Origin: Eledone cirrhosa
Lineage: Eukaryota
Assembly (NCBI GenBank): GCA_964016885.1
Contig: OZ024747.1
Coordinates: 17,112,001 to 17,176,000 of the forward strand
Direction: 5' to 3'
DNA length: 64,000 nucleotides
In this document: positions 1,383 to 4,847 of the stretch, piece by piece
Layout: every line of letters begins with the position of its first letter
Position numbering within the stretch: position 1 is the stretch's first letter
Translations under genes and position numbers: made by a program
Notes under the pieces: generated by a model
Told to the model about the DNA's origin: nothing
Database searches by the model: none
Seen by the model: the letters and a program-made list of their open reading frames with translations, nothing else

Positions 1383-2676
1383 TATGAATATAGACATAGA
1401 ATATTCGAAAATATTCTGTATGTTTATAATAAACATTTTGAAGACCTAATCGCTATAGAATAGAATACGTCACGTATTACAATTAGATTCTCGATAAAAG
1501 CAAGGGAAGTAAGTCTACGCGTTTCATTCTTGTTAGAATTCATCAGGACTACATATCCAGTGCTTTTATCGAGAATGACACAGCTAGAGACTTATAGAAT
1601 ACTTAGCTGTGTACAGGAACTGGTTTGAAAGAGCGGTTGCCGGTCCGGCAGAAATTAGAAATTGGAATAAATGCTCTGAAATAGCGATATATATGTGAAT
1701 ATAGACATAGAATATTCGAAAATATTCTGTATGTTTATAATAAACATTTTGAAGACCTAATCGCTATAGAATAGAATACGTCACGTATTACAATTAGATT
1801 CTCGATAAAAGCAAGGGAAGTAAGTCTACGCGTTTCATTCTTGTTAGAATTCATCAGGACTACATATCCAGTGCTTTTATCGAGAATGACACAGCTAGAG
1901 ACTTATAGAATACTTAGCTGTGTACAGGAACTGGTTTGAAAGAGCGGTTGCCGGTCCGGCAGAAATTAGAAATTGGAATAAATGCTCTGAAATAGCGATA
2001 TATATGTGAATATAGACATAGAATATTCGAAAATATTCTGTATGTTTATAATAAACATTTTGAAGACCTAATCGCTATAGAATAGAATACGTCACGTATT
2101 ACAATTAGATTCTCGATAAAAGCAAGGGAAGTAAGTCTACGCGTTTCATTCTTGTTAGAATTCATCAGGACTACATATCCAGTGCTTTTATCGAGAATGA
2201 CACAGCTAGAGACTTATAGAATACTTAGCTGTGTACAGGAACTGGTTTGAAAGAGCGGTTGCCGGTCCGGCAGAAATTAGAAATTGGAATAAATGCTCTG
2301 AAATAGCGATATATATGTGAATATAGACATAGAATATTCGAAAATATTCTGTATGTTTATAATAAACATTTTGAAGACCTAATCGCTATAGAATAGAATA
2401 CGTCACGTATTACAATTAGATTCTCGATAAAAGCAAGGGAAGTAAGTCTACGCGTTTCATTCTTGTTAGAATTCATCAGGACTACATATCCAGTGCTTTT
2501 ATCGAGAATGACACAGCTAGAGACTTATAGAATACTTAGCTGTGTACAGGAACTGGTTTGAAAGAGCGGTTGCCGGTCCGGCAGAAATTAGAAATTGGAA
2601 TAAATGCTCTGAAATAGCGATATATATGTGAATATAGACATAGAATATTCGAAAATATTCTGTATGTTTATAATAA
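1383..2676 (-). mobile_element. Tandem array of 311-bp hammerhead-ribozyme monomers (retrozyme-like), left arm, ~4.2 copies
   Basis: GAATATAGACATAG recurs at 1386, 1697, 2008, 2319, 2630 (period 311). Each full unit carries an HHR on the minus strand. Confidence 0.9.
1509..1552 (-). ncRNA. Type I hammerhead ribozyme (further copies at 1820-1863, 2131-2174, 2442-2485)
   Basis: Reverse complement of GTAGTC-CTGATGA-ATTCT-AACA-AGAAT-GAAA-CGCG-TA-GACTTAC. Confidence 0.88.
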
Positions 2677-4847
2677 TTTCTGCCGGACCGGCAACCGCTC
2701 TTTCAAACCAGTTCCTGTACACAGCTAAGTATTCTATAAGTCTCTAGCTGTGTCATTCTCGATAAAAGCACTGGATATGTAGTCCTGATGAATTCTAACA
2801 AGAATGAAACGCGTAGACTTACTTCCCTTGCTTTTATCGAGAATCTAATTGTAATACGTGACGTATTCTATTCTATAGCGATTAGGTCTTCAAAATGTTT
2901 ATTATAAACATACAGAATATTTTCGAATATTCTATGTCTATATTCACATATATATCGCTATTTCAGAGCATTTATTCCAATTTCTAATTTCTGCCGGACC
3001 GGCAACCGCTCTTTCAAACCAGTTCCTGTACACAGCTAAGTATTCTATAAGTCTCTAGCTGTGTCATTCTCGATAAAAGCACTGGATATGTAGTCCTGAT
3101 GAATTCTAACAAGAATGAAACGCGTAGACTTACTTCCCTTGCTTTTATCGAGAATCTAATTGTAATACGTGACGTATTCTATTCTATAGCGATTAGGTCT
3201 TCAAAATGTTTATTATAAACATACAGAATATTTTCGAATATTCTATGTCTATATTCACATATATATCGCTATTTCAGAGCATTTATTCCAATTTCTAATT
3301 TCTGCCGGACCGGCAACCGCTCTTTCAAACCAGTTCCTGTACACAGCTAAGTATTCTATAAGTCTCTAGCTGTGTCATTCTCGATAAAAGCACTGGATAT
3401 GTAGTCCTGATGAATTCTAACAAGAATGAAACGCGTAGACTTACTTCCCTTGCTTTTATCGAGAATCTAATTGTAATACGTGACGTATTCTATTCTATAG
3501 CGATTAGGTCTTCAAAATGTTTATTATAAACATACAGAATATTTTCGAATATTCTATGTCTATATTCACATATATATCGCTATTTCAGAGCATTTATTCC
3601 AATTTCTAATTTCTGCCGGACCGGCAACCGCTCTTTCAAACCAGTTCCTGTACACAGCTAAGTATTCTATAAGTCTCTAGCTGTGTCATTCTCGATAAAA
3701 GCACTGGATATGTAGTCCTGATGAATTCTAACAAGAATGAAACGCGTAGACTTACTTCCCTTGCTTTTATCGAGAATCTAATTGTAATACGTGACGTATT
3801 CTATTCTATAGCGATTAGGTCTTCAAAATGTTTATTATAAACATACAGAATATTTTCGAATATTCTATGTCTATATTCACATATATATCGCTATTTCAGA
3901 GCATTTATTCCAATTTCTAATTTCTGCCGGACCGGCAACCGCTCTTTCAAACCAGTTCCTGTACACAGCTAAGTATTCTATAAGTCTCTAGCTGTGTCAT
4001 TCTCGATAAAAGCACTGGATATGTAGTCCTGATGAATTCTAACAAGAATGAAACGCGTAGACTTACTTCCCTTGCTTTTATCGAGAATCTAATTGTAATA
4101 CGTGACGTATTCTATTCTATAGCGATTAGGTCTTCAAAATGTTTATTATAAACATACAGAATATTTTCGAATATTCTATGTCTATATTCACATATATATC
4201 GCTATTTCAGAGCATTTATTCCAATTTCTAATTTCTGCCGGACCGGCAACCGCTCTTTCAAACCAGTTCCTGTACACAGCTAAGTATTCTATAAGTCTCT
4301 AGCTGTGTCATTCTCGATAAAAGCACTGGATATGTAGTCCTGATGAATTCTAACAAGAATGAAACGCGTAGACTTACTTCCCTTGCTTTTATCGAGAATC
4401 TAATTGTAATACGTGACGTATTCTATTCTATAGCGATTAGGTCTTCAAAATGTTTATTATAAACATACAGAATATTTTCGAATATTCTATGTCTATATTC
4501 ACATATATATCGCTATTTCAGAGCATTTATTCCAATTTCTAATTTCTGCCGGACCGGCAACCGCTCTTTCAAACCAGTTCCTGTACACAGCTAAGTATTC
4601 TATAAGTCTCTAGCTGTGTCATTCTCGATAAAAGCACTGGATATGTAGTCCTGATGAATTCTAACAAGAATGAAACGCGTAGACTTACTTCCCTTGCTTT
4701 TATCGAGAATCTAATTGTAATACGTGACGTATTCTATTCTATAGCGATTAGGTCTTCAAAATGTTTATTATAAACATACAGAATATTTTCGAATATTCTA
4801 TGTCTATATTCACATATATATCGCTATTTCAGAGCATTTATTCCAAT
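2674..4847 (+). mobile_element. Tandem array of the same 311-bp monomers, right arm, inverted, ~7 copies
   Basis: Reverse complement of the left-arm unit. HHR starts at 2779, 3090, 3401, 3712, 4023, 4334, 4645 (period 311). Copies look identical by eye. Confidence 0.9.
2779..2822 (+). ncRNA. Type I hammerhead ribozyme (further copies at 3090-3133, 3401-3444, 3712-3755, 4023-4066, 4334-4377, 4645-4688)
   Basis: Helix I GTAGTC/GACTTAC; core CUGAUGA (2785-2791); helix II ATTCT-AACA-AGAAT; GAAA (2806-2809); palindromic helix III ACGCGT; predicted cleavage after GUA at 2815. Helix I is extended by a perfect 16-bp ATTCTCGATAAAAGCA/TGCTTTTATCGAGAAT stem. Confidence 0.9.

Follow-up and report, generated by a model that had tools for sequence, protein, structure and literature searches.

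Non-long-terminal-repeat (non-LTR) retrozymes of animals have been described from coral, mussel, and axolotl (PMC7229834), and from Xenopus and others (bioRxiv 10.64898/2026.07.22.740005). Retrozymes are non-coding tandem repeats with a unit of 150-450 bp, a GC content below 50%, one type I hammerhead ribozyme per unit and a short palindromic helix III, and they share their genomes with Penelope-like elements (PLEs). Both accounts propose RNA circles, rolling reverse transcription, and PLE partners, leaving the mechanism open, and the copying of retrozymes from such circles by PLE enzymes was proposed from co-occurrence and phylogeny. RNA circles were proposed as PLE templates in PMC4209133, a model repeated in PMC7761336, and hammerhead motifs with a short palindromic helix III were reported to act as dimers (PMC4209133). 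An element with the same retrozyme properties was found in a 64,000-nt stretch of the Eledone cirrhosa genome (contig OZ024747.1; hereafter the window), where eleven copies of a 311-nt hammerhead-bearing unit are inserted. Most loci of this family carry a U-U at the base of helix II, as does axolotl HHR_Amex2. The insertions described here are two-armed and inverted, with fixed ends, a tail, and (TA)n targeting, features that the available text of the two accounts does not describe. RNA and cleavage were shown for the coral, mussel, axolotl, and Xenopus elements, whereas the present family is known from DNA sequence alone.

PLEs that contain an endonuclease (EN+) are marked by an inverted 5′-truncated copy, a tail of 30-40 bp at one end, and microsatellite targets (PMC8557442, PMC3846280), and non-autonomous Chlamys PLEs such as MRC1 are among the closest known systems (PMC8557442). 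The purified anole PLE protein cuts AT-rich DNA and extends both strands, with two internal RNA starts that bracket the tail (PMC11167929). The family described here resembles EN+ PLEs in its partial tandems, inverted 5′-truncated arm, tail, AT-rich or microsatellite targets, and hammerhead within the repeat (PMC8557442, PMC3846280, PMC11167929, PMC4209133), as well as in its two internal reverse transcription starts and the extension of both strands. It differs in having no open reading frame (ORF), in the many exact units per arm (up to 28, versus one or two pLTRs), and in that no sequence link from the retrozyme to a PLE was found in the loci examined. The element is not an autonomous PLE, since the unit has no ORF with reverse transcriptase (RT) plus GIY-YIG.

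The insertion in the window is real, young, and of a known class, the non-LTR retrozymes, and was probably made by a PLE enzyme that copied a circular RNA repeatedly from both ends of the target (rough probability, 0.6). The retrozyme class and the idea of circles copied by PLEs are already known. Neither a footprint of two arms with fixed ends nor comparable haplotype evidence was found for retrozymes in the literature searched, which lay mostly outside subscription journals and supplements. The family provides insertion-level evidence, at more than 1,000 near-identical sites, of the PLE tail, of two fixed starts, and of one template for both arms, together with selection on the ribozyme domain between copying rounds. 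It makes the circle testable as a real transposition template, and likewise the origin of PLE inverted ends.

The insertion in the window

The repeat forms two divergent blocks, 1376-2676 (4.2 units, 4 cores, minus strand) and 2674-4847 (7.0 units, 7 cores, plus strand), that overlap by 3 nt. The arms point away from each other, and the outer end of each adjoins a TA microsatellite. The units are identical, with no mismatch across the 2,174 nt of the right block and an exact match over 1385-2676 in the left block, and the unit is non-coding, with a longest stop-free frame of 59 codons. The first-pass annotation had correctly described the 311-bp period, the identity of the copies and the absence of an ORF; of the eleven-copy array that it had proposed, the eleven cores stand, and the single head-to-tail array is replaced by two opposed blocks. 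Coordinates below are those of the window, and phase 1 of the unit is position 2816, the first base 3′ of the predicted cut.

1322-1384, no strand: (TA)n-type microsatellite, target at the left end
1385-2676, minus: short-ended arm, 4.2 units, 4 hammerhead cores
1516-1546, 1827-1857, 2138-2168, and 2449-2479, minus: cores of the short-ended arm
2674-2676, no strand: inversion junction of the arms, 3-nt microhomology
2674-4847, plus: long-ended arm, 7.0 units, 7 hammerhead cores; inner end at phase 170, outer end at phase 166
2755-2844, plus: type I hammerhead domain (predicted) of the first plus-strand unit, closed by a 16-bp stem (2755-2770 with 2829-2844)
2779-2784 with 2816-2822, plus: helix I; 2792-2796 with 2801-2805, plus: helix II
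2785-2815, plus: catalytic core with palindromic helix III (2809-2814), predicted cut 3′ of A2815
2816-3126, plus: predicted monomer, 311 nt, 34% GC, from cleavage site to cleavage site
2908-2937, plus: hairpin with a UUCG loop, directly 5′ of the short priming site
4812-4847, plus: terminal tail, phase 131-166, at the end of the long arm only
4848-4868, no strand: (TA)n-type microsatellite, target at the right end

The outer end of the short arm lies inside the (AU)4 run of the unit, at phase 131-140, and its inner end is at phase 84. A 10-nt target duplication is possible in the window, indistinguishable from the (TA)n repeat; at other loci, too, both ends lie within (TA)n, and a target-site duplication of the size that non-LTR retrozymes may have, more than 4 bp, would merge with it. 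The 84/170 junction of the window (2644-2703) recurs at the unrelated locus L126 (7288-7347, oriented), which has another haplotype and other arm lengths; this may be chance combined with a preference for microhomology, or an inherited junction.

The 311-nt unit carries a predicted type I hammerhead. CUGAUGA, a 5-bp helix II, GAAA, and GUA were all seen, with A2815 as the predicted cleavage nucleotide, a position that follows from the hammerhead consensus. The 16-bp stem is perfect, and the fold (z = -6.1) was matched by none of 200 shuffles. These parts agree with the one hammerhead per unit of the first-pass annotation, and the cores are complete in all eleven units. That annotation made no mention of helix III being a palindrome, ACGCGU, which can pair with itself. 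The comparison with Rfam that it had suggested gave no hammerhead match at E ≤ 1 for window positions 1-8000, and a weak, sub-threshold match to HH9 for a 131-nt piece (17.8 bits versus a gathering score of 52, E = 0.03). Because the Rfam support is weak, the ribozyme call is based on motif, fold, and family variation. In the majority copy, the core letters are intact in 96 of 96 loci, N7 being the sole variable core position. Helix I occurs in several sequence forms, and in 93 of 96 loci it has all six of its pairs.

Directly to the right of the insertion, non-repetitive host DNA is present three times at 98-99% identity within 4867-7163 (4867-5120, plus; 5235-5641, minus; 6765-7163, plus), and the copies flip orientation at (TA)n tracts. 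This may be a local inverted triplication or an assembly fold-back; the family pattern is independent of it.

Ends, arms, and haplotypes across the family

A search of the 3.0-Gb genome assembly returned 3,924 matches to one exact 31-nt core variant and 1,051 to the exact long-end junction. Since that core variant is the majority form in just 25 of 96 loci, the whole family is estimated at about 15,000 units. The family is dispersed, with more than 1,000 end junctions by exact matches. It has no LTR-type termini, the ends passing straight into (TA)n (no separate search for a primer-binding site or polypurine tract was made). In total, 105 loci were read. They comprise the window, 12 loci chosen for their core, and 92 taken from contig C1, in the order of listing, for their long-end junction; in these 92, the (TA)n context of the long end was a selection criterion. 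Twelve further stretches were chosen by internal variants, and fetched loci carry L-numbers.

Two arms were found in 97 of the 105 loci. Among the 92 picked by the long end, 86 are two-armed, and the opposite end was placed by alignment at phase 136-140 in 84 and ran off the stretch in 2. In every one of the 84 loci where it was visible, the opposite end occupies a second fixed site in (TA)n, 26-35 nt upstream of the first. The six one-armed loci comprise two that abut assembly gaps, one that runs off the stretch, and three that are genuinely single. In the core-picked set, including the window, 11 of 13 loci are two-armed; of 12 long ends, 9 are at phase 166, 2 near 171, and one at 155. The short end lies in the (AU)4 run of the unit, which can pair with the target, and it is therefore placed at 131-140; the long end has just 2 nt in common with the target. 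Short ends adjoin AT repeats in 88 of 97 loci (exact 9-mer class), the remainder being mostly variants, and the short end of the variant-picked stretch L143 is atypical.

The arms have median lengths of 3.1 and 3.9 units, and reach 28 units; in 57 of 94 loci, each of the two arms is more than two units long, and their lengths correlate weakly (rho 0.34; 0.37 on 66 loci). The family scatters kilobase-long perfect inverted repeats through the genome, which would give long double-stranded RNA if transcribed. The inner ends were analyzed in 86 of 94 rows, seven having been dropped where the walk halted at an internal indel and L031 for its complex junction; L077, edge loci, and one-armed loci also lie outside this set. 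Inner ends are uniform in phase. No pile-up was seen at the cleavage site (4 and 0 of 86 versus 3.0 expected) or at the second priming site (18 of 86 versus 14.1 expected), and there was no excess of mirrored positions (9 of 86 within 15 nt versus 8.6 expected). Short-arm stops are slightly more frequent than expected at phase 11-29 (11 of 94, p = 0.03), a difference that is lost given the number of tests. Microhomology of at least 2 nt was found in 38 of 65 flush inner junctions, versus 18% by chance.

In LINE-1 (L1) twin priming, both ends of the target prime on a single RNA, and the resulting cDNAs are joined head-to-head by microhomology; the first of them stops close to the second primer site, the position of which varies. 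Here, unlike in L1, the inner ends are random, and reverse transcription would begin at two fixed sites; classical twin priming was tested on the inner ends, and was not seen. The simple one-directional rolling-circle array of the first-pass annotation is not supported, because two opposed arms start from two fixed internal sites.

The same majority haplotype was found in both arms of 58 of 61 loci, compared with 0.094 by chance, and two of the three exceptions have single-unit arms. Arrays are homogeneous, with 94 single-unit events in 718 units (4e-4 per base), and the 84 multi-unit loci fall into 33 haplotypes, 23 of which were seen once. In L139, a haplotype with three changes occupies all 13 full units of both arms, and the combination occurs nowhere else with the 159G background among all 37 genome matches. 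Variants that disrupt the core, either of helices II and III, or the 16-bp stem account for none of the 36 array-wide variants, which have already passed through a copying round, versus 18 of the 94 single-unit variants (p = 0.003); for the ribozyme alone, the counts are 0 of 36 and 14 of 94 (p = 0.011). The cleavage site is read through cleanly in the arrays, which requires a continuous template, and the selection on cutting suggests cut-and-ligated circles as that template.

In contigs from public runs (three runs of one sample), the unit is present, as are unit-to-(TA)n ends, and there are four inversion-type joints, of which one occurs in two runs; the window's own inversion junction was absent among the bridging contigs listed. 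From 66 to 94% of the unit's words were found in 20 of the 24 public runs listed, under 18 organism labels. None of the listed runs with the unit is an RNA run, which carries no information on expression. Four of the runs, here called X1, X4, X5, and X8, were compared with window positions 1-1700. The unique flank is covered by X1 alone (139-676 and 777-1088, with no difference). The other three, which are foreign, contain the unit and abundant host repeats only, at low depth; the proportion of the two in X4 and X5 is roughly that of X1. Horizontal transfer was considered and set aside, trace host DNA being the simpler explanation for the three foreign runs compared.

The template and the copying enzyme

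A cycle that would account for these properties can be proposed. Transcription across an arm would yield a multimer, which the hammerheads would cut into monomers of 310/311 nt, probably as dimers, as is proposed because helix III is a short palindrome. A host ligase may then close the monomers, by analogy with the coral, mussel, and axolotl retrozymes. A PLE protein would nick both strands of (TA)n, and reverse transcription would start at unit phase 166 and at about 131-140, where the fixed ends are observed. Each cDNA would cross the ligated cleavage site repeatedly on a presumably circular template, consistent with the read-through observed, and the two cDNA 3′ ends would halt at random phase and join through short microhomology, as the junctions indicate. 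The 26-35 nt offset, the inverted 5′-truncated arm, and the (TA)n target match the PLE signature, and the family data support the proposal of the first-pass annotation that this is a recent non-LTR retrozyme mobilized by a Penelope-like enzyme.

Many PLE-like frames are present in the genome. In one PLE-like family, 13 of 150 scored matches are stop-free frames of 822-834 aa, in which RT and GIY-YIG-like motifs were recognized by eye. Each of the eight copies read has its end in (TA)n, at either of two sites separated by about 165 nt, and by eye three of the eight have an inverted 5′ piece. This family, thus, shows the same insertion grammar; it is not the proven partner. Its loci L207-L214 have 832-aa open frames, a long 3′ untranslated region, and a hammerhead-like motif with C for the conserved U4. 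In the window, a 134-codon frame (35923-36324, minus) resembles by eye the linker and the start of the endonuclease of the PLE-like frame of L106.

An older sister retrozyme family with a unit of about 320 nt gave 2,406 motif matches, and 30 of its loci were read.

L073:9000-9500, L095:5100-6000, L147-L176: sister retrozyme copies

The sister family keeps unit phases 60-235, including the hairpin before the short start site, and has similar end points. The stem of the hairpin is maintained by two double changes, and its UUCG loop is replaced by GCAA. The sister hammerhead differs, with C3-G8/U3-A8 variation and compensatory changes in helix II. Because phases 60-235 are kept next to a different hammerhead, the hairpin-plus-tail region is a candidate signal for the enzyme.

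Several observations weigh against the circular template and its PLE copyist. The haplotype of L086 switches after the second hammerhead in both arms, that of L062 switches inside one arm, and minority units are repeated in L053, L071, L052, and L137; such switches and repeats are more readily explained by a multimeric template, or by duplication of the DNA at a later stage, than by one monomer circle. A test for variants that have no donor failed for three of three (119G, 372 matches; 89T, 46 matches in 5 places; 159G, 37 matches in 5 places), and since donors exist, homogeneous arrays could have been copied from homogeneous donor arrays. Counting one borderline variant as damaging moves the ribozyme-only comparison to p = 0.066. 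The anole PLE used mainly uncut RNA as its substrate in vitro (PMC11167929). On the side of the enzyme, Pfam and PDB did not name the protein of the PLE-like family, the tail is about 165 nt in the one PLE family examined (counted by eye), and the retrozyme priming module was absent from 38 loci of one PLE-like family and from 30 sister-family loci; no PLE sharing retrozyme sequence was found in other fetched loci, which together cover a minority of the PLE families of the genome. As a separate observation, minority units altered at the cleavage site or at U16.1 recur 7 and 4 units apart, within one arm, in L053 and L137, which suggests a multi-unit duplication after or during insertion.

Most of these points can be read in favor of the same element and enzyme with a different usual template, namely a linear multimer that comes from transcription of a donor array and stays uncut. 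Circles would then be occasional and would found new haplotypes. The in-register switch of L086, the existing donors, and the preference of the anole enzyme suit this account, and L062 resembles classical twin priming on one long RNA. A linear multimer does not explain why the inner ends of the long arm miss the second priming site, and copying of array from array should gather single-unit variants and shorten the arrays, whereas these are homogeneous and diverse in haplotype; purifying selection on the ribozyme domain is also hard to explain if cleavage plays no part in the cycle. A linear template is a serious but unlikely explanation. Replacing the partner by another target-primed retrotransposon that favors microsatellites, with the inversion produced by ordinary twin priming, would accommodate the lack of a PLE with shared sequence and the other RT-like frames in the fetched loci. 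Such a partner leaves unexplained the lack of poly(A) and of an added 3′ repeat, the two fixed internal starts 26-35 nt apart, the random inner ends, and the match of the end features both to the tail described as unique to PLEs and to the autonomous PLE-like copies of this genome, and it is regarded as improbable.

Self-priming has been proposed for PLE head-to-head repeats (PMC3846280), and one arm could accordingly be a fold-back DNA copy of the other, which would give both arms one haplotype; a few junctions do lie in the unit's own hairpins. The inner phases of the arms are unrelated, either arm can be the longer, and the outer end of each is fixed at a site of its own, all of which make fold-back copying very improbable. 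An equally remote prospect is that the arrays are a DNA satellite spread by unequal crossing over, or an artefact of assembly at (TA)n palindromes. The repeated minority units occur in long arrays, the host DNA next to the window insertion is triplicated in alternating orientation, and the window junction is missing from the bridging contigs listed, as either would allow; set against this are the dispersed loci, more than 1,000 in number, that share both outer ends and have locus-specific junctions and haplotypes, and the unit-to-(TA)n ends and inversion-type joints in the public-run contigs.

A more specific version of the circular-template reading is tentative and rather doubtful. Each insertion may represent one viroid-sized RNA circle, copied from both cut ends by a dimeric, telomerase-like PLE with the arms in register, and some of its changes might be A-to-I edits written into germ-line DNA. 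Register is suggested by the correlation of arm lengths (rho 0.34-0.37) and by the switch of L086, which occurs in step. The candidate edits are recurrent A-to-G changes at stem positions, at 277 on 6 backgrounds, 260 on 4, and 21 on 3. Array-wide variants include 9 A>G and 5 T>C, compared with 7 and 15 among single-unit variants (p = 0.087); A>G is also tolerated in stems. If this version is true, the 311-nt RNA would be a minimal, ready-made PLE substrate with a mapped hairpin-plus-tail signal in common with the sister family.

Other repeats in the window and the fetched loci

Further hammerhead-bearing repeats were observed. In the window, an element bounded by (TA)n at 5893-6573 has a minimal hammerhead at 6136 (minus strand) and a 152-nt tandem repeat; it is also present in nine fetched loci, where its 3′ end falls at either of two points separated by about 120 nt. 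Three motifs that resemble hammerheads and belong to other families lie at 46808, 56852, and 58035 (all minus strand), followed by (TA)n where the sequence was read, and helix II of the motif at 58035 resembles that of the 311-nt element. In L085:2265-7313, L082, and L046:3573-6074, other hammerhead arrays, both tandem and inverted, have units of about 466 and about 490 nt.

The remaining repeats of the window are of other kinds. A 28-bp minisatellite with 113 copies and a strong purine skew occupies 59183-62353. Decayed copies of a very abundant short interspersed repeat lie at 27-165 and 1064-1225, and this repeat presumably resembles the short interspersed elements (SINEs) of octopus.

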